Of a stretch of 64,000 nucleotides of DNA, positions 10,088-39,203 are shown piece after piece. The stretch covers positions 768,001-832,000 of the forward strand of contig CAVSOU010000010.1 in the NCBI GenBank assembly GCA_963729625.1, given 5' to 3'. The position numbers and the translations under genes are program-made. The notes under the pieces were generated by a model. The model was given only the letters and a program-made list of their open reading frames with translations, had not been told where the DNA came from and did not search any database. Within the stretch, counting starts at the first letter, position 1. Each line of letters begins with the position of its first letter. The stretch comes from an uncultured bacterium (GTDB taxonomy: Bacteria > Chloroflexota > UBA5177 > JANWHV01).

Positions 10088-10183
10088 GGTAGCGACGCCC
10101 AGGGCGAGCGTGTACAGTCTGATCACCCACTGGACGTCGCTGGTCGACGCTACATGCTTCTCCTGCAAGGCCCGCAGCGCCAC
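10088..10183 (-). repeat. 96-bp diverged direct copy of part of the MFS gene (31571-31666)
   Basis: 11 mismatches in 96 nt by manual alignment; ALRALQEKHVASTSDVQWVIRLYTLALGVAT against ALRALQEKFVASTSDVQWVISLYTLALGVAT. Confidence 0.9.
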
Positions 10184-10323
10184 GAGTTCCTGCGATGCGC
10201 AGCTCATGGTGGTAGCAACCTACCTGCGAGGTGTGAGGCCTTGCTAGCCAGACCACTCACGTGGGCACGAGGATGGCCAGGCGGGCGGCAGCGGGTCAGC
10301 CGGCCGCCTGGTTACCGACTGCG

Positions 10324-10607
10324 CCCTACATGCCGTTCGACCTGGGGTCGTCGTCCAGCACGACCGCGCTGAGCTTCAGCGCGCCCGTGCCCTTGAATAG
10401 CCCAATGGCAACCACGGTGTAGTCATGGTCGGCCTTGAGCTGTACGCCACTCACCGTCAACACGGTGGTGGTGTCCGCACCGGCCGGATGAACCAGCACG
10501 GTATAGGTGCCGGTCGGTGCGCTGACCGGAGACATGGCGCGATTGGGGAAGGAGACGTCCTTGAAGATCAGCCCCGCCCCCTTGCCTCGATGTCCACGGC
10601 CGGCGCG
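10324..10607 (-). pseudogene. 3' remnant of a DUF4397-like gene; inverted copy of about 35552-35836
   Basis: Encodes KGAGLIFKDVSFPNRAM...DDDPRSNGM*, nearly matching the C-terminus of 35115-35834; 1-nt deletion; 5' part missing. Confidence 0.92.
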
Positions 10608-11806: not shown

Positions 11807-13150
11807 TCACCCGGTCGGTGTTTTCGCGCGCGTCCAGGACGTCCCGGCAGGTGTGTCCGCGATCACATAGCCCAGTCGCTCGAGCTGCTCGCGCACCCGA
11901 TCGGCCTCGGCCCACTGGCGACTGTCCCGGACAACGGCACGAGTCGAGACCAGCAGGTCCACCAGCAGCTGCGATTCCTGCCGCGCCTTCTCCGCGCCGT
12001 CTATGGCTTCAAGGAGCCGAACCAGGCCGGGGAGCGTTCCCTGCAGTGCCTGCACCGCCAGCTCAGCCCGGCCTGGCAGGGACTGCTCAAATCCGGAGCC
12101 GGCCAGCAAACTCAAAGCGATCAGGCCGTGCACGGCCTCGGGGATATCGCGCCTGGCAAAGGCTTGCTCCACGCGCACACGCGTGGCGAGAATATCGGCA
12201 TCCTGCGCGGCTTCGCCGTTCTCACGTGGCGGAACGACCATGGCCTGGTGGCTCACTGGGACTGCCTCTTCATCCGTGTGTGGGTGATGAAGAGCGAGAT
12301 GGTCACCGCGTGCGTAGACAGATTGGCGACCCGCAGTACGCAGAGTGACCCGGCCGGACCCAAGCACCTCGGCGTCCCGGTCAGGTCGAATGAACAGTGC
12401 GCTGTATTCGTCCAGGCCGAGGACGAGCGCGTCGGCGGGTAGCTGCTGCTCGAGCGTCTCGAAACGCGCTGCTCCCATGTAGCAGTAGCGCGTGTCGTGT
12501 TCGCCGCTCGCATTGTTCCAATGGGGCACCACAGCGAGCCGACGTTGGCCGGCAGCACCCAGCAGGTTCAACCCCTCAATCCACTCCGGGTCGTATCCGG
12601 CCTTGTAGATCTCATAGACGGGTATGGCCCAGGTCCCCACGCTGAGCGCGGCCGCGCTTGCGAACACCAGGAGCGCTCCCGCGCGCCAGCGTGCGACGAC
12701 CGCCTGCCAGACCGGGCTCTCGCGCAACACACGGATGGCGTAACTCGGGCTTCCTGGCCCGGCCAGAATGTAATTGGCCTGGCCGATCGCGCGCAGCGCA
12801 GCGCCCACGTCTTCGGCGCTTTCGCGACCGGAACGGTAGCGCGCAACTTCCAAGCTCAATCCGAAGTTGCGCCGAAAATACTCGACTGCCTTGTGGTCGA
12901 TGGCATCAATGTTAGACTCGAAGCCGGCCGGCGTATCGAGGAACACCGGCCGTACCGGGCTTTCGAGTCGTGCCATGAGCGCGCGGTGCGTCTCGGCCAT
13001 CGCATCGGCCAATTCACCGGACCCAATCAGGGCGATGGCACCGGAACCCTGCGTGAGTCGCGTGTCCGTGACGACCGGCAGGCGAGAGAGCTCGGGCGCG
13101 CCGTCACCAACCTCCGAAGCGCCCTCGAGATGCGGATGCTTGGTCACCAC
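11807..13150 (-). CDS. Peptidase S51/class I GATase-like domain fused to a CysRS anticodon-binding-like C-terminal domain
   Basis: LIGSGE, AGPGSPSY, FASAAA, VVPHWNN, LGLDE; C-terminus RAVVRDSRQWAEADRVREQLERLGYVIADTPAGTSW. Confidence 0.8.
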   Translation of the reverse strand: MVTKHPHLEGASEVGDGAPELSRLPVVTDTRLTQGSGAIALIGSGELADAMAETHRALMARLESPVRPVFLDTPAGFESNIDAIDHKAVEYFRRNFGLSLEVARYRSGRESAEDVGAALRAIGQANYILAGPGSPSYAIRVLRESPVWQAVVARWRAGALLVFASAAALSVGTWAIPVYEIYKAGYDPEWIEGLNLLGAAGQRRLAVVPHWNNASGEHDTRYCYMGAARFETLEQQLPADALVLGLDEYSALFIRPDRDAEVLGSGRVTLRTAGRQSVYARGDHLALHHPHTDEEAVPVSHQAMVVPPRENGEAAQDADILATRVRVEQAFARRDIPEAVHGLIALSLLAGSGFEQSLPGRAELAVQALQGTLPGLVRLLEAIDGAEKARQESQLLVDLLVSTRAVVRDSRQWAEADRVREQLERLGYVIADTPAGTSWTRAKTPTG

Positions 13151-13312: not shown

Positions 13313-15469
13313 CTAGGCCGCCTCACCTTCCGCCACGAGGTCATCTTCCTCAGACAGATCCGCGGCGCCACGCGACGGCTGCACCCGCAGGAGCCGCGCC
13401 GGAAGGGACGGCAGCCACCAGTTCCACTGCCCAAACAGCGAGACCAGGGCGGGAACCAGCAGCATCCGAACCACGGTGGCGTCGAGTAGGACACCGGCTG
13501 CCAGGCCGGTGGCGAAGATCTTGATCGTCGTTTCGGGGCCGGAGCCGAGGGCGGCGAAAGCCAGGAAAAGAATCAGGGCGGCGCTCGTTACCAGCCTGCC
13601 CGTAGTGCCTACACCCCGCACCACCGCTCCGTTGGTCCGGCCGGTGGCGTTGTACTCCTCCCGCACCCGGGCCAGGATGAACACCTCGTAGTCCATGGAG
13701 ATGCCGAAGAGGAAGGCGAAGACCATCAGGGGGACGAAGCTGGTGATCGATCCGGTGGCCTGAATACCCCAGATGGCCTGTGAGCCGAATCCATCCTGCC
13801 AGACCAGCACCAGGATGCCCCAGGAGGCCGCCACCGAAACCAGCACAAGCACGACGGCCTTCAGGGGCAGAAGGATCGAGCGGAAGGCACGTGCAAGCAG
13901 GACGAACGTGACGAGCACAATCAAGCCGATCATCAGAGGGAAGCTGCCGTAGACCGCGGAGATGAAGTCGGCGTTCTCCGCACCGGCACCGCCAATGCTC
14001 ACGCTGCTGGATTCAGCGCGCGCCACCTGGCGCATCCGATCCAGCGTGCTCCGTCCGGCGTTGGAGCTGCCGTCCGCGGTTGGCAGGGCCACAACGAGCG
14101 AGGTGCCGCCTTGGCGCCACGCCGGACCTCCCGGCGCCACGGCGCCGCGGACCCCTGATGTCTGGCCAACCCTGAGAGCCACCGTCTGTGGGTTGGCGTT
14201 CGCTACCAGGATCTCGAAAGGATTGAGAGCGCCAGGCCCGATGCCGGCCTGTTCCAGGGCGGACAGACCCTGATAGGCCTCGCCTGCCTTGGCCAGTGAA
14301 TTCGCTTTCGGGTCGCCGATGTTGAGCGAGAGGGCGGGAATGGCCAGCGCGGCCAGGACACCGATCGCCAGCCCCGCCGCCAGCCACCGGCGGCGCACCA
14401 CCAGTGTGCCCCAGGCCGTCCAGAAGCGGTTCGTGCGCGGTTTGCTGCGCCGCGGCCAGTCGATGCGCGGTCCTACCGTCTTCAATACAACCGGCAGCAG
14501 GGTGGTGGCCACCAGCACGCTGACGAGCGGGATCAGCATGCCGCCGTAGCCGACGCTGCGCAGGAAGGGCAAGGGCAGTACCACCAGAGCCAGCAGGCCG
14601 ACTGCCACCGTCGTGCCGCTGAAGATCACGGCCGTCCCGGCAGTCTCCATGGCCCGCTGGACTGCCGCCGTGTTGTCGAGCCCACCAGCGCGCTCTTCGC
14701 GCCACCGCATCACGATGAGCAGCGAGTAGTCTATGGCGATGCCCAGCCCGATCAGCGCGACGAGGAATTCGACGATGAAAGACACATCGGTGACTCTGGT
14801 CAGACCCCAGATGAGCAGGAAGGTGGAGGGAATGGCGACGATTGCCATGACGATGGGCACAAGGGCCAGGAACGAGCCGAAGACGACGGCCAGCACGATC
14901 AGCGCCCCGATACCGCCCAGCATCGCCTCCACAAGCACGCTTGGGCCGCCGCCACCGCCACCGCTTTCCAGCGCGCTCGTGCCGGTGACGGCGAAGTGCG
15001 CGCCGGCAACGGTGAAGCGCGACAGTATGTGGCGGACGGTAGGTAGCGTCGCATCGGGCGCGAAGCCGACCGGCTGCGGTCCGTAGATGAGGCCGAAGGT
15101 GGTGTGCCCATCGGCGGAGACAAACAGCCTGCTGCCGGTCGACGCGTAGGAAACCACACGCGTACGACGTAACGCGGCCTGCACGGCGTCGAAGGCGGCG
15201 CTCAGCTGAGCGCGCACGCCCGGGCTGTCGACTGTCACGGAGGACGGCAATGTGATGACCGGGACAAGCGGAGGGGTCTGGCCGCCATTGTCGTATGTCT
15301 GCAGGATGCGTTGGTTCGTCTGATACCCTGCCCCGCCGGGGACGGAGAACTGGTAGGATAGCGCGTTGTTGGCCGACTGCAACGACAGGATCGCGGCGAC
15401 CGCGACGAGCAGCCAGAATATGGCGACAAACCTGCTGTGCGTGAGCATCCAGCGTGTGAATATGGCCAC
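13313..15469 (-). CDS. MMPL-family (RND) transporter
   Basis: GLGIAIDYSLLIVMRWREE, FGISMDYEVFILARVREE, LLDATVVRMLLVP; GTG start after AAGGAG. Confidence 0.92.
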   Translation of the reverse strand: MAIFTRWMLTHSRFVAIFWLLVAVAAILSLQSANNALSYQFSVPGGAGYQTNQRILQTYDNGGQTPPLVPVITLPSSVTVDSPGVRAQLSAAFDAVQAALRRTRVVSYASTGSRLFVSADGHTTFGLIYGPQPVGFAPDATLPTVRHILSRFTVAGAHFAVTGTSALESGGGGGGPSVLVEAMLGGIGALIVLAVVFGSFLALVPIVMAIVAIPSTFLLIWGLTRVTDVSFIVEFLVALIGLGIAIDYSLLIVMRWREERAGGLDNTAAVQRAMETAGTAVIFSGTTVAVGLLALVVLPLPFLRSVGYGGMLIPLVSVLVATTLLPVVLKTVGPRIDWPRRSKPRTNRFWTAWGTLVVRRRWLAAGLAIGVLAALAIPALSLNIGDPKANSLAKAGEAYQGLSALEQAGIGPGALNPFEILVANANPQTVALRVGQTSGVRGAVAPGGPAWRQGGTSLVVALPTADGSSNAGRSTLDRMRQVARAESSSVSIGGAGAENADFISAVYGSFPLMIGLIVLVTFVLLARAFRSILLPLKAVVLVLVSVAASWGILVLVWQDGFGSQAIWGIQATGSITSFVPLMVFAFLFGISMDYEVFILARVREEYNATGRTNGAVVRGVGTTGRLVTSAALILFLAFAALGSGPETTIKIFATGLAAGVLLDATVVRMLLVPALVSLFGQWNWWLPSLPARLLRVQPSRGAADLSEEDDLVAEGEAA

Positions 15470-15593
15470 GTGAGCCCTTCTCCTTTGTGATCTGAGTCCG
15501 TAATTGGGCCGGCCTGACGCGCTTCGTGCCGCGTTGCCTTGTACGCGACGGTAGCAAGTGCCCGTGACGGCCGCCATCAACATTTCTAGGATC

Positions 15594-15622
15594 ATGATAG
15601 TTGACTAAGTTTTATTAGTCAA
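15594..15622 (-). promoter_or_regulatory. Sigma70-type promoter overlapped by a palindromic operator
   Basis: Minus strand TTGACT-17 nt-TATCAT; perfect-arm palindrome TTGACTAA-gtttta-TTAGTCAA at 15601-15622. Confidence 0.8.
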
Positions 15623-15766: not shown

Positions 15767-17239
15767 TCAGTTGGGTCTGCGAGGGGGCGAGGCAGTGCGA
15801 GATGTCGATGCCACAGTGCGGGCCGCGACGAACATGGCCATGGCGCGCCGGCGTCGCTCGCCGTGATCGACTATTGGCGCCGGATACGTCTTGCCAAGGA
15901 CGAAGCCGAGACGCGCGGACTCGGCCGAGGGGAGCGTCCAGGGCGAGTGCACGTGCTCGTCCGGCAGGGCAGCCAGCTCGGGCACGTAGCGGCGCACGTA
16001 GGCGCCGCCCGGATCGTAGCGCCGTCCCTGCGTCACCGGGTTGAAGACGCGGAAGTACGGCTGCGCGTCCATGCCCACCGACGCGCTCCACTGCCAGCCT
16101 CCCACGTTGGCGGGCTTGTCGGCATCGATCAGATGTTGCCAGAAGTACGCTTCTCCCCAACGCCAATCGATCAGCAGATCTTTGCACAGGAAGCTTGCCG
16201 TGATCATGCGCACACGGTTGTGCATCCAGCCCTCGGCGTTGAGCTGGCGCATTCCCGCATCGACGATCGGATAGCCGGTCAGGCCGTGACACCAGGCAGC
16301 AAAGAGATCGCCGGAGTTCTCGTAGGGCATCGCGTCGTAGCGCCTCTCGAATGCCTGAGCAATCACCTCCGGAAAGTGGTACATCCAGGCGAAGTAGAAT
16401 TCGCGCCAGGCCAGCTCGCTCTCCCAGGCATCGGGTCCCTTCTGACGATCCTCCGGGGCGTCGTGCCGTGCGCGCTCCGCGGCGGCGAATGCCGCGCGTG
16501 GCGAGATTGTGCCGAAGCGCAGGTGAGCTGAGAGATGGCTGGTGCCGAGCTGAGCCGGCAGGTTGCGTGCCGTGGCGTAGGCGTGGATGGGAGCGTGCGG
16601 GGCACAGGTGAACTGTTCAAGCTGGCGCAATCCCTCGTCCTCGCCACCATGCTGGGTGCCGGCCGCGCGTGTCCAACCCAGCTCTTCCGCCGTCGGGATC
16701 GCATGGCCCTGGAGCGCGGGCGTAGAGAGCGGTCGTTCCAACGCGGCAAACGGCAACGCATGGGGCCGTGCCGACCAGGCCCGCCGGTAGGGCGTGTAGA
16801 CCCGGTAGGGCTGCCGGTCCTGCGTAAGCAGCTCATCGGGCTCCACGAGCACGAGATCCTTGAAATCGCGGTACAGGAAGCCGGCCGCCTCCACTGCACG
16901 GCGCACGCGCGCGTCGCGCCGCATACCGGGAGCAACGTAGTCGCGGTTGACGTAGACGCCTTCGGCGCCGCTCTCCCGCAGCGTGGCCAGGAGAACCTGT
17001 GCTGGGTCACCGCGACGTACCAGCAGATAACTGCCGTGGTGGCGCAGATTGGTATCGAGCACGCGCAGGCTGTCCAGCAGGAAGGTGATGCGTGGGCCGT
17101 TAGCGTGGGGCGCGGTGATCAGTGAGGGGTCGAGGATGAACAGCGGAATCACCCGCGCCGCATCACGCACCGCGTGGTACAGCGCCGCATGATCGCGCGT
17201 GCGGAGGTCGCGCCGGAACCAGCAGACGAGGGTGCGCAT
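15767..17239 (-). CDS. phrB: Deoxyribodipyrimidine photolyase
   Basis: WFRRDLR..DH, TSHLSAHLRFGTIS, ELAWREFY, TGYPIVDAGMRQL, WMHNRVRM, NVGGWQW. Confidence 0.95.
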   Translation of the reverse strand: MRTLVCWFRRDLRTRDHAALYHAVRDAARVIPLFILDPSLITAPHANGPRITFLLDSLRVLDTNLRHHGSYLLVRRGDPAQVLLATLRESGAEGVYVNRDYVAPGMRRDARVRRAVEAAGFLYRDFKDLVLVEPDELLTQDRQPYRVYTPYRRAWSARPHALPFAALERPLSTPALQGHAIPTAEELGWTRAAGTQHGGEDEGLRQLEQFTCAPHAPIHAYATARNLPAQLGTSHLSAHLRFGTISPRAAFAAAERARHDAPEDRQKGPDAWESELAWREFYFAWMYHFPEVIAQAFERRYDAMPYENSGDLFAAWCHGLTGYPIVDAGMRQLNAEGWMHNRVRMITASFLCKDLLIDWRWGEAYFWQHLIDADKPANVGGWQWSASVGMDAQPYFRVFNPVTQGRRYDPGGAYVRRYVPELAALPDEHVHSPWTLPSAESARLGFVLGKTYPAPIVDHGERRRRAMAMFVAARTVASTSRTASPPRRPN

Positions 17240-17244
17240 CGGCC

Positions 17245-18732
17245 CTATGGCTGTCCGAGTTCCAGGCGGATGCGCTGTGCTACGAGTCGAGCACCAATGA
17301 TCACCATCGGTACGCCGCCGCCCGGCACCGTTCCGGCACCCACGAAGTACAGGCGATCCAGGGCCCTGGCCTTGTTGTGGGGCCGCATGTAGCCGACCTG
17401 GAAGAAGTCATGCGCCAGGCCGAACGTGGCGCCGTGGCGCAGGTGATACGATTCGGCCCAGTCGGCCGGCGTGACCATCTTTTCCACCACGATGTGCTGC
17501 CGTATGTCCGGCGCCGCCAGCGACTCGACCTTGTCGAGCACCAGCTCCCGGTAGCGCGGCCCCTCAGTAGCCCAGTCCATGCCCTCGTAGATGCGCGGCA
17601 CGGGCACGAGGACATAGACACAGTCCGCACCAGCGGGCGCCATGGCCGGATCCGTGCGGGTGACGCAGTGCACGTAGAACGAAGGGTCCGAAGGCAGGCG
17701 ATGCTGTTTGAAGATTTCGACGAAGTTCCTGTCGCTGTCTTGGGCGAGGAACACATTGTGGTGGAACAGGTCGTCATAGACCTTGTCGACGCCGAGGTAG
17801 AGCATGAAAGCCGAACATCCGTAGCGCAGGCGATCCAGCCGCCCGCCCGCGTACGGCGCGCGGAACTGAGGTGGCAGCAGAGATCGGTAACTGTAGGGGA
17901 GGTCCGCGTTGCACACGACGACGTCTGCTGCCATCTCGGTGCCGTTCGTCAAGCGCACTCCGGCGGCGCGGCCATTTCGGACGATGATCTCCTCGGCCTC
18001 ACACGCAAGGCGGACTTCTCCGCCCAATTCCGTGAGAACCCGTACGAGCGCGCGCGGAATGCTGTACATACCGCCCATGGGGTACCAGATGCCGTCGTGG
18101 ATCTCGGTATAGGGCAGTAACGAGTAGATCGCCGGCGCGTCGGCCGGAGCCAGGCCAAGATACATAGTCTGGAAGGTGAAGGCGACACGTAGCCGCGGGT
18201 CCTTGAAGTACCGGGCGGCGAACTTGGCGAGCGACGTCAAGGCGTTGAGACGCAGCACATAGTAGAGGTTCAAAGGCGTGAAGAATTCCGCCCAACTGCG
18301 AAAGTTGCGATCGGTGAAGCGCTGCCGCGACACACGGTACTTGTATTCGGCGTCGGCGAGAAAGCGCCGATATTGGTCGCCTGCTCCTGGCTCGATGGCC
18401 TCGAGCTGGCGGCAGAGGGCCGCCTCATCACTCGACAGATCCAGGTGCGTGCCGTCGCCAAAGCGGATCCGGTAGTTGAAGGGCAGCCGGACCAGCTCCA
18501 GGTACTCGCGGATGTCCCTGCCGACCGACCTGAACAGCTCGCGCAATGTGTCCACCATCAGAAGAATCGAGGGACCTGTATCGAAGGTGAAGCCGGCCTC
18601 CGCGTAGGTGTTGCAGCGTCCGCCTGGTGCTGCATTCTTCTCCAGCACGGTGACGTCGTAACCCTGGTGCTGCAGTCGAACCGACGTTGCCAGGCCCCCG
18701 ATCCCAGCGCCAATCACAATCGCGCGTTTCAT
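17245..18732 (-). CDS. crtI: Phytoene desaturase
   Basis: IGAGIGG, GFTFDTGPS, WYPMGGM, YFVGAGTVPGGGVPMV. Confidence 0.92.
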   Translation of the reverse strand: MKRAIVIGAGIGGLATSVRLQHQGYDVTVLEKNAAPGGRCNTYAEAGFTFDTGPSILLMVDTLRELFRSVGRDIREYLELVRLPFNYRIRFGDGTHLDLSSDEAALCRQLEAIEPGAGDQYRRFLADAEYKYRVSRQRFTDRNFRSWAEFFTPLNLYYVLRLNALTSLAKFAARYFKDPRLRVAFTFQTMYLGLAPADAPAIYSLLPYTEIHDGIWYPMGGMYSIPRALVRVLTELGGEVRLACEAEEIIVRNGRAAGVRLTNGTEMAADVVVCNADLPYSYRSLLPPQFRAPYAGGRLDRLRYGCSAFMLYLGVDKVYDDLFHHNVFLAQDSDRNFVEIFKQHRLPSDPSFYVHCVTRTDPAMAPAGADCVYVLVPVPRIYEGMDWATEGPRYRELVLDKVESLAAPDIRQHIVVEKMVTPADWAESYHLRHGATFGLAHDFFQVGYMRPHNKARALDRLYFVGAGTVPGGGVPMVIIGARLVAQRIRLELGQP

Positions 18733-24654: not shown

Positions 24655-24684
24655 TTGACTAATCTTTATTATTCAGTTTACACT
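24655..24684 (+). promoter_or_regulatory. carH promoter and operator
   Basis: TTGACT-18 nt-TACACT overlapped by TTGACTAA-tcttta-TTATTCAG. Confidence 0.75.
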
Positions 24685-24695
24685 GGATCGTAGAG

Positions 24696-25652
24696 ATGAG
24701 GCACGCGGCTCAGAGTGGGCCGCGAACGAAAGAGAAGATGCACAGCAAGCAAGACAGTCCTCAAGGCGGATCCAGCTTGTTCCCGATTGGGACGGTCGCG
24801 CGACTGACCGGGGTGCCGGAGATGACCTTGCGGAATTGGGAGAAGCGGTATGGCATGCCCAGTCCGGGCCGCGACGGCTCGGGCGGACGGCGTCTGTATA
24901 CCGGCGACGAGATCGCCCTGGTCCGCTATCTTGCCCAACGCGTGGCGAGTGGCACGTCGATCCGCAGGGCGGTTGCCGCGGCGGTGGATAACCAGCGAGA
25001 CCCCGATCGCCTTGTGCAGTCACTGCTCATGGCTGCACAGTCGTTGGATGCGGCAGGCGTGGAGCGGAGCCTCTCCGCGGCGACGGCGGCTCTCCCTCCT
25101 GCCGACGCCTGGTCCCGCGTTCTCGTACCAGCGCTGCGCGGGCTGGGCGATCGCTGGGAGGCGGGCGATGACGTGATCGCCGCGGAGCACCTTGCCAGCA
25201 GTGCCATCGCGGCGTGGCTACGGGCAGTGATCGCGGGCATCCCGGCCGGCACAGGACATCCGCGAGCAGCTGCGGCGTGCGGTCCCGACGAGCAGCACGA
25301 GCTGGGCACGATGGCCCTGGTGGCGCTGGCATCGACTCGCGGCACCCCGATGGTGTACCTGGGCGCCAACACGCCGCACAGTGCTCTGGAAGATGAGCGA
25401 CGGATCATGGGCCTGCGCGTCCTCTGCATCACGGCCACCCAGCCCGACACAGCCGATCGCGTGGTCGAGATCATCGAGAACCTGGCAAGGCAGCCGGCTG
25501 AGACAGCGCTGGCCTATGGTGGGCCAGGGTTCGCGCAACGCGAGGGCGCGCACGCGCGCCTGACAGGACTCGCCATCTATCTTGGCGTGACGATTGACGA
25601 CGCGGTCGGGCGCATCGAGCAGTTGTGTGCCCAGGCAGCGGGCGGCGCCTGA
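24696..25652 (+). CDS. carH: CarH/LitR-family adenosylcobalamin-dependent photoreceptor repressor (MerR HTH plus B12-binding domains)
   Basis: IGTVARLTGV..TLRNWEKRYG, GGRRLY; W-x9-EH (WEAGDDVIAAEH); EQHELG; YLGANTP; adjacent to crtB. Confidence 0.9.
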   Translation: MRHAAQSGPRTKEKMHSKQDSPQGGSSLFPIGTVARLTGVPEMTLRNWEKRYGMPSPGRDGSGGRRLYTGDEIALVRYLAQRVASGTSIRRAVAAAVDNQRDPDRLVQSLLMAAQSLDAAGVERSLSAATAALPPADAWSRVLVPALRGLGDRWEAGDDVIAAEHLASSAIAAWLRAVIAGIPAGTGHPRAAAACGPDEQHELGTMALVALASTRGTPMVYLGANTPHSALEDERRIMGLRVLCITATQPDTADRVVEIIENLARQPAETALAYGGPGFAQREGAHARLTGLAIYLGVTIDDAVGRIEQLCAQAAGGA

Positions 25653-25707: not shown

Positions 25708-26730
25708 ATGGATGGTCATGGCCACGACCGCGATGGCAGTGAGGGAGTCGGCGGCGAGATGAATGGATTCGGACGGAGCGATTCGATGCTGGAGCATGCC
25801 AACGCGCATTGCGCCCGTATCATCGCTGCGAAAGCCCGCAGCTTCTCGCTTGCCTCGCGCTTTCTCCCTGCCGGCAAACGGTGCGACGTGAACGCGCTCT
25901 ACGCCTTTTGCCGCACCGTCGACGACATCGCCGACGTGCCAGGAGACGGCGCATCGTTCGCTTCCATCCGGCTCCAGTTGGATGGCTGGCGAGCCTGGCT
26001 GCTCGCCGGGGCCCCATTTGAGGACGAACCGGTTCGCTACGCACTCGCACACGTCATACGAAAATGTTCGCTGCCACTATCGCCGCTGCTTGAGCTGCTT
26101 GACGGCCTGTCCGACGACGTCGAGCCCCGCCAGCTTCCCGATCTTGCCGCCCTTGACCGCTTCTGTTACCGCGTCGCCGGCACGGTGGGCATCGCCATGG
26201 CCGCGCTGCTGGGCGCCCAGGACGCGGCCGCCCTGGATCCGGCGCGAGATCTCGGCATGGCGATGCAGTTGACCAACATCGTGCGCGACGTCGGTGAGGA
26301 TCTGGCGCGGGGACGCATCTATATTCCCGCGGACGCCATGGCGCGGGCCGGCTATCGGCAAGTCGATCTCGAGCAAGGCATCGTCGACGCGCGTTTCGTG
26401 ACTCTGCTTCAGCCACTCATCCAGCGTGCGCGTGACTACTACCGCATGGGTTTGGCCGGGCTCCACTACCTGCCTCGCGACTGCCGGCTGCCCATCGCGA
26501 TTGCCGCGCAGGCCTATGCTGGGATTCTCATTAAGGTCGAGCACGCAGGCTTCGACGTGCTGACGCAGCGAGTGCACACGGGACGGCGCGAGAAGCTGCT
26601 GCTCGTGACGCGGGCCGGCCTCAAGCATCTTGCCACGCGAGGGTTTGCGCGCGGGCCGAACGAATGGCATGGGTTAGACAGCGAACGCCGTGAGCCGCCA
26701 GGAGAACCGACGTGGAAGATATCCCTGTAA
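25708..26730 (+). CDS. crtB: Phytoene synthase
   Basis: SFSLASRFLP, YAFCRTVDDIAD, CYRVAGTVG, MQLTNIVRDVGED..RGRIYIP; start may be 25758. Confidence 0.93.
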   Translation: MDGHGHDRDGSEGVGGEMNGFGRSDSMLEHANAHCARIIAAKARSFSLASRFLPAGKRCDVNALYAFCRTVDDIADVPGDGASFASIRLQLDGWRAWLLAGAPFEDEPVRYALAHVIRKCSLPLSPLLELLDGLSDDVEPRQLPDLAALDRFCYRVAGTVGIAMAALLGAQDAAALDPARDLGMAMQLTNIVRDVGEDLARGRIYIPADAMARAGYRQVDLEQGIVDARFVTLLQPLIQRARDYYRMGLAGLHYLPRDCRLPIAIAAQAYAGILIKVEHAGFDVLTQRVHTGRREKLLLVTRAGLKHLATRGFARGPNEWHGLDSERREPPGEPTWKISL

Positions 26731-26874
26731 TCCTTGTCAGCGGCGCCACGGGATATATCGGCGGCCGCCTCGTCCCTCGCTTGCTGGCGGACGGCCACAG
26801 CGTGCGCGTCCTCGTGCGCGACCACGATCGCTTGCAGGGCCGTGCCTGGCGCAGGCGGGTGGAGGTTGCCCAGG
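26701..26874 (+). pseudogene. Truncated 5' copy (RBS plus about 54 codons) of the SDR/DUF2867 gene at 37725
   Basis: Direct repeat of about 37714-37887; the last 130 nt differ at only about 2 positions; similarity stops at gttgcccagg. Confidence 0.92.
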
Positions 26875-30202: not shown

Positions 30203-31822
30203 TCATGCCTGCGCACCTTCCGGCCTGCGCGCCTCGAACGGCCGGGGCACGTTCGTCATGGCGGCGCCCGTCGCCAGACCGGACGTGCGGGTCGCGACCG
30301 GGGTCGCGCTTGCCCGGCCAGCCGGCGCCGTGCGACGACTATATGCGCCAGGCCAACCGGGGAGAAAACAGGCTAGGGCAGTGGCGACGATAGAGATGGC
30401 CAGCGCCGCGACGTAGGCATGCTCTAGGCCCGTGAGGTACTTCTGCTGGAATCGTCCGACTGCTGCGGCCGTGGCGCCGACCGACGGCTGACGGAGAGTG
30501 ACCGCCCCAGCGGCGATGGTGGCCAGCAGCGCTACGCCTATCGCCTGCATCGTTTGCTGGAAGGATCTGAGCAGCGGAGTCGCTCGTCTGATGCGAGTGA
30601 ACGGCACGTCGCTCAGTGCTGCAACCTGCGTGGTTTGGATCACCAGCGCTACGCCGATGCCGCGGAGTGCTGCCAAGACGGCGATGAGAGTCAGGCTCGT
30701 GGAGAGGGTGATGTGCGAGAGCTGATAGGTGTTGAAGACCAGGAGCAGGAATCCGACCAGGATCGGTAGGCGCGGCCCGACCCGGTCGGTAATCTTCCCC
30801 GCGAGAGGTGAGACAACCCCCGAGGTCAGGGCGAGGGGAAGCAGGAACAGGCCCGCTTCGAATGCCGTCCGACCGCGCAGGACCTGCAGGTACAGCGGGA
30901 GCAGGAACTCGGCGCCGAACAGGGCGACGCTACCCACCATGCCCACGACTCCGGCCACGGCAAAGCTGCGAATACCCAGGAGGCGCAAGTCGAGCAGCGG
31001 CTCGGGGGCCCGAAGCTCGGCCACGACGAGGGCGAGCAGCGCCGCCAAGCCCAGTCCCAGTCCTGCCAGCACGCGCCAGTCGCCCCAGCCCGCGCCGGGC
31101 TCCCCGGCCACCGAGGCGGCGAAGAGCAGGGCACCGAAACCAAGCGGCGCCAGCACGATGCCTGCAAGGTCGGCACGGGCCGCACGCGCCGGCTCCGCCC
31201 TCAGCAAGCGCCCGGCGATGCCGGCGCCCGCGAGGCCGATCGGCACGTTGATAAAGAATATCCAGGGCACCTGACCTTGGTCCACCAGCCAACCGCCGAG
31301 CAGCGGGCCACTCGCAGGGGCAAAGACCAGCACGATACCGAAAATGCCGAAGGCGAGGCCGCGCTGCTCCGGTGGGAAGGCCCCGAACAATAGGGCAGTG
31401 GCCAGTGGCAGCGCGATGCCGCCGCCGATTCCCTGCAATGCGCGCGCGGCGATCAGCAGGCCCAGATTCGGGGCCAGGCCGCAGAGCGCGGAGCCGAGCA
31501 CGAAGATGAGTAGACCGCCGATGTAGACCCGCTTGGCTCCAAGGCGGTCACCCAGGAATCCGGAGAGTGGGGTGGCGACTCCCAAGGCAAGCGTGTACAG
31601 ACTGATCACCCACTGGACGTCGCTGGTCGACGCCACGAACTTTTCCTGCAAGGCCCGTAGCGCCACATTGACCACCGTCGCGTCGAGGATCACCATGAAC
31701 AGACCCACCACGACCGAGGCCAAGACCTGCCATTTGTAACGATCGGCGCCGACCCCGCCTTCCCTGACGGCGGTCTTCCACGAACCTGGCGTGACCGGGC
31801 GCTCGCCGTGCGAGCTATCCAC
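30203..31822 (-). CDS. MFS transporter, DHA2 (EmrB/QacA) family
   Basis: LDATVVNVAL, GFLGDRLGAKR, ARALQGIGGG, GPLLGG, WIFFINVPIG, EPLLDLRL. Confidence 0.92.
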   Translation of the reverse strand: MDSSHGERPVTPGSWKTAVREGGVGADRYKWQVLASVVVGLFMVILDATVVNVALRALQEKFVASTSDVQWVISLYTLALGVATPLSGFLGDRLGAKRVYIGGLLIFVLGSALCGLAPNLGLLIAARALQGIGGGIALPLATALLFGAFPPEQRGLAFGIFGIVLVFAPASGPLLGGWLVDQGQVPWIFFINVPIGLAGAGIAGRLLRAEPARAARADLAGIVLAPLGFGALLFAASVAGEPGAGWGDWRVLAGLGLGLAALLALVVAELRAPEPLLDLRLLGIRSFAVAGVVGMVGSVALFGAEFLLPLYLQVLRGRTAFEAGLFLLPLALTSGVVSPLAGKITDRVGPRLPILVGFLLLVFNTYQLSHITLSTSLTLIAVLAALRGIGVALVIQTTQVAALSDVPFTRIRRATPLLRSFQQTMQAIGVALLATIAAGAVTLRQPSVGATAAAVGRFQQKYLTGLEHAYVAALAISIVATALACFLPGWPGAYSRRTAPAGRASATPVATRTSGLATGAAMTNVPRPFEARRPEGAQA

Positions 31823-32001: not shown

Positions 32002-32081
32002 ATGAATAATTTTTCTTAGTCAATTCCGCTCCGTATTCACTATACCCGAAGGCGCAGAGTTTGACTACGGTTATTAGTCAA
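32002..32081. promoter_or_regulatory. Two palindromic operator copies upstream of the MFS gene
   Basis: ATGAATAA-tttttc-TTAGTCAA (32002-32023) and TTGACTAC-ggtta-TTAGTCAA (32061-32081), flanking a minus-strand TATAGT. Confidence 0.7.
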
Positions 32082-32088
32082 ACAGCCA

Positions 32089-32560
32089 ATGTGGAGGTCG
32101 CGCTCCAGGCGGCTGCAGCGCGCGACGCGGCCGTCATCGCCGCACTGCACACCAGCAGCCGGTGTGGCACATATCGCGGCATCTTCTCCGATGTCTACCT
32201 GGACCATGAGATACTTACCGAGCGTCAGCGCTATTGGCGGCGCCAGCTTCAGGCAGAGCCGCGTGCACAGCAGAGCGTCCTGATGGCCACAGACGGCAGC
32301 ACGGGCGTCGGCTTCATCTGCGTCGTGCTAGACGCTGAGCCGTAACGGTGTCAATGCTCGACAATCTGCATATCCTGCCCTCCTACCAGGTTCGTGGGAT
32401 AGGACGGCAACTGCTCGACACAGGTCGTGCCTGGGTGCAACGCCGGGCGGCGTACGACCCCTAGCACCTGTGGGTGGTGGAGGACAACCGAGCTGCGCGG
32501 CGCGTCTAGGAGCATCTGGGTTACATACCGGCAGACCGCGCCATCCACCATGCCCCTGAC
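32089..32560 (+). pseudogene. GNAT acetyltransferase, disrupted
   Basis: DAAVIAALH..TYRGI..YW..VGFICV, stop at 32343, then LDNLHILPSYQVRGIGRQLL in another frame; ends approximate. Confidence 0.75.
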
Positions 32561-32846: not shown

Positions 32847-33200
32847 TTACTCCGTGCTACCAGCCACCTCGTCGAGAGATGCGGCAAGATAGACGATGCC
32901 AACGCCACCTCGACGATCGACTGCCTCAGGCGGAAGGAAGCGCGGCTCAGACTGATTGCGTACGGCGGCAGCCGCCTTGCGGATCGGGACGCCGCTGAGC
33001 ACGCGGTGCGCCAGCAGGCGCACGTGGTCAACATCCTCCACTCGGTACAGGCGCCGGTTTCCCCGTACGGTACGCCGCCGCAGCGGAATGCCGTACCGCT
33101 TCTCCCAGTTTCTCAGGGTGGTTGCCGGTACGCCCGTGAGGCGCGCAGCGGTGCTGATCGGGAACACGATGGACTGAGCAGGCCGACCTTCTTGCTCCAC
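32847..33200 (-). CDS. CarH paralogue retaining the MerR HTH but lacking the B12-binding region (possible pseudogene)
   Basis: FPISTAARLTGVPATTLRNWEKRYG..GNRRLY; tail GIVYLAASLDEVAG resembles the CarH C-terminus LAIYLGVTIDDAVG; start uncertain. Confidence 0.75.
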   Translation of the reverse strand: MEQEGRPAQSIVFPISTAARLTGVPATTLRNWEKRYGIPLRRRTVRGNRRLYRVEDVDHVRLLAHRVLSGVPIRKAAAAVRNQSEPRFLPPEAVDRRGGVGIVYLAASLDEVAGSTE

Positions 33201-33266
33201 GTGCCTTGCCCTCTGCTCAGCACACAGTCGCAGATCCTCAGGAGGCCTGCGCACACCGCCTACTCC

Positions 33267-33296
33267 AGTATGAGATGACTAATATAGATTATTCAA
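33267..33296 (-). promoter_or_regulatory. Promoter and operator of the CarH paralogue
   Basis: Minus strand TTGAAT-18 nt-CATACT; operator ATGACTAA-tataga-TTATTCAA; 26 of 33 nt match the carH promoter. Confidence 0.72.
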
Positions 33297-33460
33297 GCAT
33301 GGGTGGTGCGCCTGCCTGGTCCGTCTCGCGACCGCCATGCACGAGAAGTCTGCAAGGCGCCGCCGCCCATCCCCGCCGCCCACCCTCTGCCGTCGCCGGA
33401 TCACCGGCGGCGTGGTTCAGCGGTCGCCGAACGACGGACGCACCGGGCTGCAAACTGGAC

Positions 33461-33540
33461 TTGAAGAAGAAATCTAGTCAAAACGTACACCGTGTGGTAT
33501 GGTGGTAGCGAGGGCGCTTTGACTAGTAAAACTTAGTCAC
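33461..33540. promoter_or_regulatory. Operator copies upstream of the DUF4397 operon
   Basis: TTGACTAG-taaaac-TTAGTCAC (33519-33540) and a weaker TTGAAGAA-gaaat-CTAGTCAA (33461-33481). Confidence 0.7.
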
Positions 33541-33763
33541 GGTGTCTTGGGAGAGGTCAGGCGCCATGGTCGCGCAGAGCGCTCCTCGAGCGGTATGTGC
33601 CGAAGGGCACAGGGAGGGATGTGCAAGCCCGCTGAATAGTAGGTGCAGAATGTGTTCGGCTCGGTTACCGTTTACCACTTGCCGGCGAATCGCACCGGCG
33701 TCACCACCCAGATAGTCGCCTGAACGTTCACAGCCGGGACTTGCCGGCTCAAGAGGAGGATCG

Positions 33764-35059
33764 ATGACAGTCCTTGTTCACCGGCGGGTCTTCACCCGCC
33801 TGCTACCCCTGGTGTGTGCTCTCCTGGTGGCGATGCTCGCGCCGTCAGCATGGGGCCTCAACGCCAGTGCCGCAACTCCCCCGCCAACCGCGAACGTGCG
33901 CGTCGTGCATGCCTCGCTGGATGCTCCGGCCGTGGATGTGTATGTCGACGGGGCCAAAGCCTTCTCCAATCTTGCCTTCATGGCGGTCACGGACTACGCC
34001 TCGCTGCCGGCTGGCAGCCACCATGTGCAGGTCTTTGCCGCCGGTACCGGCCCGTCCGGCAAGGCGGTGATCGACGCCGCGGTGACGCTCAAGGCCGGCA
34101 CGGACTACACCGTCGCCGCTATCGGGCTGCTTGCGACGATCAAGCCTCTCGTGCTCGTCGACGACAACAGCCTGCCGCCACCCGGCGCCTCGCGCTTGCG
34201 TGCCGTTCACGCCTCCACGGACGCGCCGGCCGTGGATCTGGCCGTGACTGGTGGCCCCACTGTAATCAAGGGCCTGGCCTTCGGCTCAGCCAGTGACTTC
34301 CTGACCGTGAAGCCGGGCGCTCTTCCGCTCAATGTCCTGGCTGCCGGCACCAGTACGGTGGCCCTCGGCTTGCCCGACTTCCGCATCCACCCCGGCCGCA
34401 CGTTCACGGTGTTCGTGGTGGGCACGCTCAAGGGGGGCCTGCAGGTCATCGTGGCCAAGGATCGTGGGCCGCAGGCGCGCATACGCGTCGCGCATGCTTC
34501 GCCGGATGCCCCGGCCGTGGACGTCTACCTGGACGGCGCAGCGGCGATCACCAACCTCAGCTTCAAGACGGTGACCCCCTACCTGACGGTCCCCGCGGGC
34601 AGCCATCATGTCCAGGTCTTTGCCTCCGGCACCGGCCCGTCCGGCAAGGCAGTCATCGACACGACGGTCTTCCTGAAGAACGCCTGGGACTACACGGTCG
34701 TGGCCGCCAACAAGCTGGCCAATATCACCGCCTTCGTGCTGCATGACAACAACCCGCCACCGCCGAGCGGGAAAGCCGAAGTGCGTGTGGTGCATGCCTC
34801 GCCGGACACTCCGGCAGTGGATGTCGCGGTGACCGGCGGCGCGGTGCTGAGCTCAGGGCTGCAGCCCAACGCGGCCAGCGACTACCTCACGGTTCCTGCC
34901 GGCACCTACAATCTGGAAGTGCGCGCGGCAGGCACGACCACCGCGGCACTGAAGCTGCCGGGCGTCACGCTCGCCGCCGGCAAGATCTACACGGTCTACG
35001 CTGAAGGGCTGCTTTCGGGCATGCCCGCGCTCAGCACCATTACCTCGGTCGACAACTAG
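33764..35059 (+). CDS. Secreted DUF4397-like (AlgF-like) tandem-repeat protein, four repeat units
   Basis: Signal peptide (..ASAA); four xRxxHASxDxPAVD repeats; GAGGAGG RBS. Confidence 0.85.
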   Translation: MTVLVHRRVFTRLLPLVCALLVAMLAPSAWGLNASAATPPPTANVRVVHASLDAPAVDVYVDGAKAFSNLAFMAVTDYASLPAGSHHVQVFAAGTGPSGKAVIDAAVTLKAGTDYTVAAIGLLATIKPLVLVDDNSLPPPGASRLRAVHASTDAPAVDLAVTGGPTVIKGLAFGSASDFLTVKPGALPLNVLAAGTSTVALGLPDFRIHPGRTFTVFVVGTLKGGLQVIVAKDRGPQARIRVAHASPDAPAVDVYLDGAAAITNLSFKTVTPYLTVPAGSHHVQVFASGTGPSGKAVIDTTVFLKNAWDYTVVAANKLANITAFVLHDNNPPPPSGKAEVRVVHASPDTPAVDVAVTGGAVLSSGLQPNAASDYLTVPAGTYNLEVRAAGTTTAALKLPGVTLAAGKIYTVYAEGLLSGMPALSTITSVDN

Positions 35060-35114
35060 CGCGCGTGCCTCGCAGATACGCTTTACCCGTTTAGCACCTA
35101 ACAGGGAGCAGTCA

Positions 35115-35834
35115 ATGTCAATGTTCACATCGCTCAAACACATGGGCGTGGCCATCGTCGTGGCGGGCGCCACGCTTGCGCCGCTCGCCGTCACCCATAC
35201 CGCACAGGCTGCCGGCACTGCGTACGTGCGTGTCCTCCACGCCAGCCCCGATGCCCCCGCCGTCGAGGTCTTCGTCGACGGGGCCAAGGCGGTAAAGAGC
35301 CTGTCGTTCCCCTATGTCACGCCGTTCCTCACCGTCCCTGCCGGCTCGCATCACCTGCAAGTATTCCCGGCCGGCGCGGCGTATAGCGCCAAGGGCGGGG
35401 TGATCAACGTCACCGTGCCCTTCACGGCCAACATCTACTACACCGTAGCAGCCGTCGGCCAGCTCAAGGCGATCAGCGCCAAGGTGTTCAGCCTCCCGGC
35501 AGGCATGAACAGCACCAAGGCCACGGTGCGCTTCATCCACCTTTCGCCCAACGCGCCGGCTGTGGACATCGAGGCCAAGGGGGCGGGGCTTATCTTCAAA
35601 GACGTCGCCTTCCCCAACCGCGCCATGGCTCCGGTCACCGTACCGACAGGCAGCTACACCTTGTTGGTCCACCCTGCCGGTGCAGACAGCACCACCGTGT
35701 TGACGGTGAGTGGCATACAGCTCAAGGCCGACCATGACTACACCGTGGTTGCCATTGGGCTATTCAAGGGCACGGGCGCGCAGAAGCTCAGCGCGGTCGT
35801 ACTGGACGACGACCCGATGTCGAACGGCATGTAG
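35115..35834 (+). CDS. Secreted DUF4397-like protein, two repeat units
   Basis: Signal peptide (..AQAA); VRVLHASPDAPAVEV and VRFIHLSPNAPAVDI. Confidence 0.85.
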   Translation: MSMFTSLKHMGVAIVVAGATLAPLAVTHTAQAAGTAYVRVLHASPDAPAVEVFVDGAKAVKSLSFPYVTPFLTVPAGSHHLQVFPAGAAYSAKGGVINVTVPFTANIYYTVAAVGQLKAISAKVFSLPAGMNSTKATVRFIHLSPNAPAVDIEAKGAGLIFKDVAFPNRAMAPVTVPTGSYTLLVHPAGADSTTVLTVSGIQLKADHDYTVVAIGLFKGTGAQKLSAVVLDDDPMSNGM

Positions 35835-35991
35835 GGAGGAGTTAGCGAGCAGCCGTGCCGTTGCGAGTCTACGGCACGGCTGCCCTGGCAGTGTGGCAAG
35901 GCGAGAGTCGCAGAAGAATAAGCGAATCGTGACCAGGAAACGCCAACACAAGAACCCCGTAGAAGTTGGCAGCCGACGTCCCGTTCCGATT

Positions 35992-36787: not shown

Positions 36788-36955
36788 GTAGTGCGCAGTG
36801 CCTACGGCGCCAGGTCGGCCCTTAGCCTTCTGGATGGCAGAGTCACATACGTGAGCGACAGGAAGGGTATCATTCGTTACAGGTTCTCTTCCCTGATCCG
36901 CGTGCATCATCACGTCCAGGAAGCGCTGAAGGTCGTGCGCTCCCTGGAAGAGGCT
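36788..36955 (+). pseudogene. C-terminal remnant of a BCP peroxiredoxin paralogue
   Basis: VRSAYGA..GRVTYVSD..RYRFSS..RVHHHVQEALKVVRSLE matches the end of 23948-24454; active-site half absent. Confidence 0.85.
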
Positions 36956-37484: not shown

Positions 37485-37724
37485 CGCGTTCAGCCCCCAG
37501 CTTGTAGATGTTGTCGGCGTCGCCGGCGATGCACAGGCATGCGAGGGATTGCTGATTCGGTGGATTGGCGGCATGCGCAGCACTCGTTCCTGCACAGCAA
37601 AGACATGTCAAGAATCGCGCAGGGCGAAAAGCCTCGGGCTGCCTCTGCCAGCAGATGGCCGGGCCTTGGCAACGTGCGTCGGCCCTGGGAGCAACGGTCC
37701 TTCCGACCGGTCAGGAGGACCGAC

Positions 37725-39203
37725 GTGGTAGATACCGCGGTAGTCCTGGTCACCGGCGCCACGGGATATATCGGTGGCCGCCTCGTCCCTCGCTTGCTGG
37801 CGGACGGCCATAGCGTGCGCGTCCTCGTGCGCGACCACGATCGCTTGCAGGGCCGTGCCTGGCGCAGGCGGGTGGAGGTTGCCCAGGGCGATGTGCTCGA
37901 CCCTACCACGCTGCCGCGGGCACTTGCTGGTGTGCATACCGCGTACTACCTGATCCACAGCATGCTGGGTGGCGAGGATTTCCATGTGCGAGACCTAGCC
38001 GCCGCACGCAACTTCGGACGTGCTGCCCGGGCCGCGGGGGTCCACCAGATCATCTATCTCGGTGGTCTAGGAGATCCCGATGCCGATCTCTCCGCGCACT
38101 TGCGCTCCCGCCAACAGGTTGGTGATGCCCTGCGAGAGAGCGAGGTCCTCATCACAGAGTTTCGAGCCGCCGTTATCGTCGGTTCTGAGAGCGTGTCGTT
38201 CCAGATGGTCCGCACCCTCACCGACCGACTGCCGATCATGATCTGTCCTCGCTGGGTGTTCAGCCGCGTGCAGCCCATCGCCATCGACGATGTGCTGCGC
38301 TACCTGACGGCCGCGCTGGACACGCCCGAGAGCGCCGGCCGCGTGCTCGAGATCGGCGGGTCTGACGTTCTGACGTACGGGGAGATGATGCTGGCCTACG
38401 CGCGTGTCCGTGGACTGCGCCGAGTGCTCATTGCCGTGCCGTTCTTGACCCCGCGTCTCTCCTCCTACTGGGTGCATTGGGTCACGCCGATTCCGGCCGC
38501 CATCGCGCGTCCGCTTATCGAGGGGCTGCGCAACGAAGTGATCGTGCGAGATGACAGCGCGCGCACCCTTTTCCCTCAGATCCAGCCCATGGGCTATCGC
38601 GCGGCCGTGAAGCTCGCCTGCGCTCAGACCGTGGCCGATGAGGTGGAGACAACCTGGAGCGATGCGCTGGCCTCCAGCCGGCGAGGCGAATCCCCCGCGA
38701 CGCTCAATACAGACGCCCGCATGTTCAGCGACCGCCGAGAGCTAGTTGTGCACGTGCCTCCCAGCCTCGTATGGCGGGAGTTCACGCGGCTTGGTGGTGC
38801 ACACGGTTGGCTCTACGCCAATCGACTGTGGCAACTGCGGGGCATGCTGGACCGCGCAGTGGGCGGCGTGGGCTTGCGCCGCGGCCGTCGCCATCCGGAC
38901 AAGGTCTACGTGGGCGATGCCATCGATTTCTGGCGCGTGGAGGCAATGGAACCGGACCACTTGCTCCGCCTGCGGGCGGAGATGAAGGTGCCAGGGAAGG
39001 CATGGCTGCAGTTCGAGGTCACGCCCCGCGGCAGAGAGGAGTCGGTGTTGAGGCAGACGGCCCTCTTCGCTCCAACGGGTCTGCCTGGACTGCTGTACTG
39101 GTACGTGCTGTATCCCATTCACGTGCGAATCTTCAGCGGCATGGCTCATGCGCTGGCGCGACGCGCCGAGGCAGCGGCACTGAGCCGACAAGCGGTTCTG
39201 TAG
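37725..39203 (+). CDS. SDR-family NAD(P)-binding oxidoreductase with DUF2867 domain (YbjT-like)
   Basis: VTGATGYIGGRL, AYYLIHSM, HLRSR, QPIAIDDV, GDAIDFWRV, AEMKVPGKAWL; AGGAGG RBS. Confidence 0.9.
   Translation: MVDTAVVLVTGATGYIGGRLVPRLLADGHSVRVLVRDHDRLQGRAWRRRVEVAQGDVLDPTTLPRALAGVHTAYYLIHSMLGGEDFHVRDLAAARNFGRAARAAGVHQIIYLGGLGDPDADLSAHLRSRQQVGDALRESEVLITEFRAAVIVGSESVSFQMVRTLTDRLPIMICPRWVFSRVQPIAIDDVLRYLTAALDTPESAGRVLEIGGSDVLTYGEMMLAYARVRGLRRVLIAVPFLTPRLSSYWVHWVTPIPAAIARPLIEGLRNEVIVRDDSARTLFPQIQPMGYRAAVKLACAQTVADEVETTWSDALASSRRGESPATLNTDARMFSDRRELVVHVPPSLVWREFTRLGGAHGWLYANRLWQLRGMLDRAVGGVGLRRGRRHPDKVYVGDAIDFWRVEAMEPDHLLRLRAEMKVPGKAWLQFEVTPRGREESVLRQTALFAPTGLPGLLYWYVLYPIHVRIFSGMAHALARRAEAAALSRQAVL

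Follow-up and report, generated by a model that had tools for sequence, protein, structure and literature searches.

The window analysed here, a 64,000-nt stretch of contig CAVSOU010000010.1 from an uncultured bacterium of the Chloroflexota, contains two adjacent genes for signal-peptide-bearing repeat proteins of the family DUF4397 (PF14344). These genes stand at the edge of a light-response island, and they lie behind two copies of a palindromic operator that is also found on the promoter of a CarH-type regulator gene in the same island. The elements of the DUF4397 unit are:

33461-33481, no strand assigned: operator O1, an imperfect 21-bp palindrome TTGAAGA-N7-TAGTCAA, whose right half supplies the -35-like TAGTCA
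33475-33503, plus strand: promoter-like element read by eye, TAGTCA, 17 nt, TATGGT, the latter preceded by TGG (extended -10 type)
33519-33540, no strand assigned: operator O2, a 22-bp palindrome TTGACTA-N8-TAGTCAC, 3' of the predicted transcription start
33764-35059, plus strand: four-repeat DUF4397 gene (431 aa, signal-peptide-like N-terminus), from its open reading frame (ORF) and Pfam
35115-35834, plus strand: two-repeat DUF4397 gene (239 aa, signal-peptide-like N-terminus), from its ORF, Pfam and an AF2 model

A preliminary description of this DNA had claimed a four-repeat and a two-repeat signal-peptide protein, and both ORFs hold the repeats and the N-termini ascribed to them. The 431-aa protein matches PF14344 in four stretches (E 2e-96, 319.1 bits) and the 239-aa protein in two (E 1e-39, 135.9 bits), against a cut-off of 30.6 bits. 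The start of every DUF4397 unit in both proteins is an H-x-S-P-D-A-P-A-V-D stretch, found four times in the larger translation and twice in the smaller; in domain 1 of 46 aligned homologues its His, two Pro and Val are invariant. Within the four-repeat gene, an internal tandem duplication (33899-34255 versus 34484-34840) retains 70% DNA identity. The signal peptides, judged visually rather than by a predictor, show a charged segment and a hydrophobic one and finish in a sequence of A-x-A type, and the n-region of the 431-aa protein reads RR-x-F. Both proteins lack a lipobox cysteine and a hydrophobic C-terminal tail, and their C-termini are polar. Searches of Pfam and NCBIfam found neither a catalytic family nor any domain besides DUF4397, NCBIfam giving no match to either protein. 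On the same strand the pair is followed by genes for a DUF6789 protein, an unassigned ORF and an NmrA+DUF2867 protein; there is no sortase among them.

The fold of the 239-aa protein was modelled with AF2 from a 46-row alignment. The model (mean pLDDT 84.6) contains two all-beta domains, residues 33-130 and 133-233, as expected of a family whose unit is a beta-sandwich of some 110-120 residues, and its best structural match is the extracellular part of the peptide transporters PepT2 and PepT1 (Foldseek E 8e-9; VIA Z 16.2, root-mean-square deviation (rmsd) 2.9, 181 residues). Further matches are the luminal domain of HGSNAT (Z 10.5-11.5), the C-domain of AlgF (Z 9.9) and domain 4 of pneumolysin (Z 8.2). 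A sequence search of the PDB with the DUF4397 family profile gave no hits at E up to 1. Taken in aggregate, the model and the domain searches describe the DUF4397 proteins as a predicted tandem beta-sandwich that carries no enzyme signature. The likeness to the PepT domain (5a9h, 7nqk; Z 16.0-16.2 over 176-181 residues) comes with only 16-18% identity to what is an insert in a eukaryotic transporter, and no functional transfer is justified.

Another parallel is AlgF, which is periplasmic and built of two beta-sandwich domains (PF11182; 6d10 C-domain, rmsd 2.8 over 88 residues). One possibility would be that the DUF4397 proteins act as AlgF-like adaptors, making protein-protein contacts in a machine for envelope glycan modification, for example light-switched O-acetylation. 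The structural resemblance to the luminal domain of HGSNAT, a transmembrane acetyltransferase, would fit, as would a weak Pfam match to AlgF. That match, however, reaches 31.3 bits against a Pfam cut-off of 34.4, the locus offers no alginate or acyltransferase context, no acyltransferase gene of the AlgI/J/X-like kind was seen among the neighbours examined, and a common sandwich fold shows no function. We regard this adaptor role as very improbable.

The regulatory evidence begins with the palindrome itself, of general form TTGACTA-N7/8-TAGTCAA. Two copies had been placed ahead of the DUF4397 genes, and both are present, O1 in its imperfect form. Their centres are 58.5 bp apart, and transcription is predicted to start near 33510. 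The same element occurs on four further promoters in the island:

32002-32081, minus strand: two-operator promoter facing the MFS gene, with the perfect N7 palindrome O1' at 32061-32081, the -10 TATAGT and O2' at 32002-32023
24655-24676, no strand assigned: operator on the carH-crtB promoter, overlapping the -35 (TTGACT, 18 nt, TACACT)
15601-15622, no strand assigned: operator on the promoter of the MMPL unit, a perfect palindrome (minus strand TTGACT, 17 nt, TATCAT)
33275-33296, no strand assigned: operator on the promoter of a small MerR gene (minus strand TTGAAT, 18 nt, CATACT)

The MFS-facing promoter mirrors that of the DUF4397 unit, with the same two-operator layout and the identical spacing of 58.5 bp; its TAGTCA-17-TATAGT was picked up by the consensus scan (minus strand, 32067-32039), and O1 aligns with its perfect N7 palindrome. 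This common two-operator design places the MFS exporter apparently in the same regulon. At the carH, MMPL and small MerR promoters, the left half-site doubles as the -35.

In the window the pattern TTGACTA-N8-TWNTCA, at up to two mismatches, gives 13 strand-matches where 1.05 are expected, and no shuffled sequence out of 100 gave as many. Five palindromes (15601, 24655, 32002, 33275 and 33519) account for ten of these matches, as both strands count for each of them; of the other three, two are inside DUF4397 coding sequence and one (44980) is chance-like. Across the 5.4-Mb genome, palindromes with an AT-rich spacer are these five only, all inside 18 kb. The leader offers no sign of a riboswitch: Rfam gave no matches in the whole window at the gathering score, and none in 33250-33800 at E up to 1, and the roughly 250-nt leader of the DUF4397 unit folds no better than shuffles (z -0.18).

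Two regulator genes in the window could supply a protein for these sites:

24696-25652, plus strand: CarH/LitR-type regulator (318 aa; MerR helix-turn-helix and B12-binding_2; W-x9-EH, E-x-H-x-x-G)
32847-33254, minus strand: small MerR-type gene (135 aa), divergent from the DUF4397 genes and a paralogue of the CarH DNA-binding domain

The larger regulator matches Pfam MerR_1 and MerR, and B12-binding_2 at E 4e-9. The hallmarks of CarH and class I LitR, as set out in PMC9304148, are an RxWERRY-like recognition helix, W-x9-E-H in the four-helix bundle, and the cobalamin motif D/E-x-H-x2-G/P, x41, S-x-T/V, x22-27, G-G. Here, the recognition helix is R-N-W-E-K-R-Y (RxWExRY type), the translation contains W-x9-E-H, and the cobalamin motif, counted by hand, is E-Q-H-E-L-G, 41 residues, T-A-T (T for S), 26 residues, G-G. 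The score against the NCBIfam equivalog NF052513 is 119.9 bits, below the cut-off of 400, making this regulator a distant CarH member rather than an equivalog of the characterised proteins. The genome encodes another full-length CarH homologue outside the window (G000 contig C7:298624-299517), 36% identical to that of the window.

We infer that CarH is the protein that occupies the palindromes, among them the one on its own promoter. In class I CarH/LitR regulons of T. thermophilus, B. megaterium and Myxococcus, the operator likewise sits over the -35 of the carH and carotenoid promoters. The window differs from these regulons in its 21/22-bp palindromes, paired in two promoters, and in a set of targets that includes exported proteins and two exporters.

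The pairing of CarH with DUF4397 recurs well beyond this genome. The sample comprised the best 79 of 456 stretches encoding relatives in species-level genomes, and neighbours within 10 kb were sought by tblastn with the window proteins. A CarH homologue is present at 21 of these 79 loci, and at 17 of them (18 with a Paraburkholderia MerR head) a CarH that reaches into the B12 domain is divergent from the DUF4397 gene and less than 500 bp from it. Chance would be expected to place CarH beside DUF4397 at about 0.15 of the 79 loci, an estimate that starts from the roughly 55 CarH hits found across 151 genomes of this phylum. As related genomes are not independent, the number of clades carries more weight than the count of loci. 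In a quick tree with SH-aLRT support only, the DUF4397-adjacent CarHs fall into three or more supported clades, one of three rows (support 100) and two of six rows each (97-98 and 100), separate from a 24-row clade linked to crtB. The taxa concerned are Chloroflexia, Thermomicrobiales/Sphaerobacteraceae, Limnocylindrales and one Gemmatimonadota metagenome-assembled genome, and in their intergenic regions a TTGAC-type -35 that points towards the DUF4397 gene is flanked by AT-rich repeats. Co-occurrence of the family with carH, crt and mmpL genes had been put forward as a check; carH recurs in this way, but crtB is near only three of the 79 loci, crtI near four and MMPL near none; photolyase is near two and the NmrA+DUF2867 gene near five (the latter also accompanies 6 of 29 CarH loci).

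Gene order and protein ends were read from 11 of the 17 CarH-adjacent loci, L050, L059, L066, L071, L076 and L080 being excluded because antisense ORFs, in high-GC sequence, took the place of the true genes there. In Thermomicrobiales the unit reads carH, then divergently DUF4397, epimerase/DUF1731, a heliorhodopsin or FMN dehydrogenase gene, crtB and crtI. All 11 cleanly called proteins have signal-peptide-like N-termini, and five of the 11 end in a hydrophobic stretch and a basic tail, features with which these homologues would stay at the surface. Several peculiarities were seen in passing. A heliorhodopsin gene lies inside one carH, DUF4397-epimerase-crtB unit (L056, 11636-12460), and members of heliorhodopsin cluster c46 are near DUF4397 in L051 (Thermomicrobiales) and L014 (Gemmatimonadota). 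In five CarH-linked Thermomicrobiales proteins (L029, L036, L051, L056 and L087), a conserved stretch extends the N-terminus and places two cysteines ahead of the first domain, and the C-terminal tail is rich in Thr and Pro; the window proteins have neither feature.

Two further cases place the pairing outside these lineages. On plasmid p1 of the betaproteobacterial Caballeronia, a gene for a 304-aa protein with MerR, B12-binding_2 and B12-binding domains precedes a DUF4397 gene by 29 bp. In Thermus thermophilus HB27, a gene for a 221-aa DUF4397 protein, equal in size to TT_P0044, is about 10 kb from ldrP, carH, crtB and phr. TT_P0044 and TTHB089 resemble the two-repeat protein of the window in carrying two DUF4397 repeats and a signal peptide, at 41-42% identity over 181 aa, and the TT_P0044 cluster on pTT27 resembles the window island in holding carH, ldrP, crtB, phr and an NmrA+DUF2867 gene. 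A 2007 survey lists both proteins as two-repeat members of a then-unnamed family (PMC1876623). In a study from 2020, the LdrP orthologue TTHB099 has a site at -78 of TTHB089, to which it binds with a dissociation constant of 3.3 nM, and TTHB089 is lower in a TTHB099-deficient strain (log fold change -0.78, adjusted p 0.045; PMC7662524). The TTHB099 site at the TTHB089 promoter is visible in the HB27 sequence. Thermus differs from the window in that control runs via the LitR-dependent activator LdrP and not via an operator on the DUF4397 gene itself. It differs also in that TT_P0044 is the first of a three-gene unit whose other members are a methyltransferase and an alpha/beta hydrolase, while the window has an extra four-repeat paralogue. 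Takano et al. in 2014 reportedly found the promoter before TT_P0044 (P44) to be light-activated under LitR and LdrP. The link first proposed between DUF4397 and a light regulon is supported, as one to a B12 photoreceptor regulon, by the operator common with the carH promoter, the 21 CarH loci, Caballeronia and Thermus.

With moderate confidence, we propose that the DUF4397 pair is a light-derepressed unit of the CarH regulon whose products serve as non-catalytic binding or scaffold modules of the envelope. The regulatory half of this proposal, control of the pair by CarH and light, is the better supported and likely to be correct. In the dark, CarH bound to B12 as adenosylcobalamin (AdoCbl) would occupy O1, over the -35, and O2, just 3' of the transcription start, blocking transcription. 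In light, CarH would be released, and the four-repeat and two-repeat proteins would be made and exported, so that light probably switches these genes on. Outside the cytoplasm, tandem beta-sandwich modules of the PepT-extracellular-domain or AlgF type may bind or scaffold a component of the envelope. Their setting would be a programme against photo-oxidative stress that comprises carotenoid genes, photolyase, peroxiredoxin and the MMPL and MFS exporters.

Several observations weigh against this proposal. Some concern the DNA sites. The hexamers of the DUF4397 promoter agree with consensus at 8 of 12 positions and were read by eye, the consensus scan leaving them unlisted. Genome-wide, the strict pattern at up to two mismatches shows no excess (8 per strand versus 11 in a reversed control); the signal resides in the clustered subset with AT-rich spacers. 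The operators are palindromes, whereas CarH of Thermus and Bacillus binds tandem 11-bp direct repeats, nnnnTnnACAn, that overlap promoter elements (PMC9304148). The window sites overlap the -35 but are palindromic; the carH promoter can also be read as repeat, pseudo-repeat and repeat, with TTGACT and TTTACA 22 bp apart, a reading that the other sites do not fit.

Other observations concern the regulator. The small MerR is 55% identical to CarH residues 16-106 and has the recognition-helix motif in common, and on sequence it could bind the same operators. With a site of its own at 33275-33296, it could compete with CarH independently of light. It was considered as an obviously frameshifted carH and rejected in that role, no B12 domain or remnant being found in or downstream of the gene.

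The remaining points concern distribution and function. No CarH lies within 10 kb of 58 of the 79 DUF4397 loci, among them those of the closest four-repeat homologues (L009-L013, L015 and L016). Conversely, DUF4397 occurs within 1.5 kb at none of the 29 CarH loci, the window's own apart, that are most like the window CarH, and crtB is near 16 of those 29; this confines the pairing to particular CarH paralogues. Within the genus, four further genomes were searched, and three of them (83-92% complete) yielded neither a DUF4397 match nor the AT-rich palindrome. At 20 of the 79 loci, mostly in Bacillaceae and Exiguobacterium, a sortase gene is directly downstream, and a Pfam Sortase domain was confirmed in three representatives. 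These sortase cassettes of Firmicutes and Actinomycetota use the same two-domain surface module; the window proteins, unlike them, have no hydrophobic C-terminal sorting tail and no sortase neighbour. DUF4397 is thus a general extracytoplasmic module, only a subset of which has been recruited to light regulons. A search for sequencing runs that contain this organism turned up three DNA-type entries from a single study (best share 0.32) and no RNA run. Finally, the envelope-scaffold role draws on two lines, the modelled fold and export.

Some of these points could be assembled into a different account, in which the pair is not a light unit at all. On this view the small MerR, which lacks a B12 domain, or some other factor answering to a different signal would act at the palindromes, or these would be look-alikes of the -35, and the DUF4397 proteins would be ordinary surface proteins beside the island. 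The small MerR with its own operator, the absence of CarH from so many related loci, the departure from direct repeats and a heavily rearranged island with five duplicated segments all lend themselves to this account. It has to contend with the presence of the element at the promoters of carH itself and of the carotenoid/MMPL unit, and with its conservation in the sister genome G001 of the same genus, which retains a perfect palindrome just upstream of MMPL, in the same place as 15601-15622. It must also accommodate a CarH adjacency that recurs across multiple clades of CarH and in three more phyla, as well as the direct binding of LdrP at the Thermus homologue (PMC7662524). We consider this account quite improbable, and control of the DUF4397 pair by CarH stays the preferred reading.

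The rest of the island includes genes for a glycosyltransferase, a methyltransferase and a peroxiredoxin, together with:

25708-26730: phytoene synthase (crtB)
17245-18732: phytoene desaturase (crtI)
15767-17239: photolyase
13313-15595: MMPL transporter
30203-31822: DHA2-type MFS exporter
37539-39203, plus strand: NmrA/SDR and DUF2867 gene, 3' of the DUF4397 genes
10318-10607, minus strand: DUF4397 scar, a fragment of the 3' end of the two-repeat gene, at the end of the MMPL unit

The first ATG of the MMPL ORF (15595) falls within the predicted -10 TATCAT, and the database form of the protein has 718 aa, which puts the true start about 42 codons inside the ORF.

The segment at 10318-10607 had been described as a third, broken DUF4397 copy. 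It is real, but it is a rearrangement scar and not a gene. Over 291 nt it matches 35552-35842 at 91% identity, in inverted orientation, covering the last third of the two-repeat gene and a few bases more. It has neither a start nor a signal peptide, and it abuts the stop of a NicO nickel-transporter gene (10619-11680). As a 291-nt duplication, it supplies no independent evidence within the window genome. Five duplicated segments connect different parts of the island; besides the scar, they include pieces of three genes, those for MFS (10088-10183), NmrA (26699-26874, 94%) and peroxiredoxin (36791-36948), with a range of 74-94% identity. These scattered fragments, two of the copies inverted, indicate recent rearrangement, and the inverted pair some 25 kb apart could mediate an inversion. 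Two other broken-looking genes were noted. A 94-aa ORF (32061-32345, plus strand) that starts within O1' resembles the N-terminal part of a longer protein, is unmatched in Pfam (E up to 0.01) and may be a truncated gene. An ArsA ATPase is spread over a pair of overlapping ORFs (6963-7925 and 7348-8754) in an ars cluster with ArsR, an ArsP-type permease, ArsD and an Acr3-like SBF protein; the split may reflect a frameshift or an assembly error.

G001 has an intact two-repeat orthologue (82% identity) 3' of MMPL and in the same orientation, with 270 nt between the two genes, in the order crtI, MMPL, DUF4397 and a homologue of 11807-13150; the four-repeat gene has no match in that genome. Together with the scar, this arrangement suggests that the order MMPL-DUF4397 is also ancestral in the window genome. 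It brings into consideration an extracytoplasmic carrier, in which the beta-sandwiches would take up carotenoids, lipids or another hydrophobic product of the light response, possibly from MMPL. The place of the G001 gene downstream of both crtI and the MMPL operator would suit a carrier, as would the Thermomicrobiales units, where DUF4397 heads units under carH control that extend to crtB and crtI. So would the presence among the fold matches of pneumolysin domain 4, a membrane-binding sandwich. There is a precedent in AstaP, described as a water-soluble algal astaxanthin binder, made from an exported, adhesion-type fasciclin domain and induced by photo-oxidative stress. The AstaP fold differs from that of DUF4397, and no fasciclin domain (PF02469) was found in the window genome (87% complete).

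Against a carrier stand the scarcity of crtB and crtI and the lack of MMPL around the 79 loci, the generic character of the matching sandwiches, none of which is a known carotenoid-binding fold, and the many members of the family that are cargo of sortases and whose loci have no CarH close by. The partnership with MMPL export put forward in the preliminary description finds its one instance of adjacency in G001 and is otherwise unsupported. A complex prediction for MMPL (718 aa) and the mature two-repeat protein (residues 33-239) gave a score of 0.00 and a mark of 0.32, which speaks neither for nor against binding. The carrier is accordingly judged unlikely, and a light-derepressed pair of envelope modules continues to be favoured.

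Part of this picture is already known: the kind of switch, the family DUF4397, and one Thermus member whose light cluster has been studied by experiment. Accounts of CarH-type light switches usually centre on their control of carotenoid and photolyase genes. No literature linking DUF4397 with light was found, in agreement with the earlier statement that the family has no established function of this kind, and the recurrence of the CarH-DUF4397 pairing across clades and phyla was not found in the searchable literature. The family ranges from archaea to proteobacteria and occurs in fusions to kinases, anti-sigma factors and NuoJ, with no function known.

A broader reading, which we hold to be speculative and rather unlikely, is that DUF4397 tandem beta-sandwich proteins form a conserved exported arm of the B12/CarH light response in at least four phyla (Chloroflexota, Gemmatimonadota, Deinococcota and Pseudomonadota) and protect the envelope directly. 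Such protection might consist, for example, of carotenoids or other hydrophobic quenchers held outside the membrane, or of a light-induced coat. If true, this would be the first physiological role for a large family of unknown function. A widespread exported family under a CarH switch would point to a light response at the level of the envelope that has so far gone unstudied.

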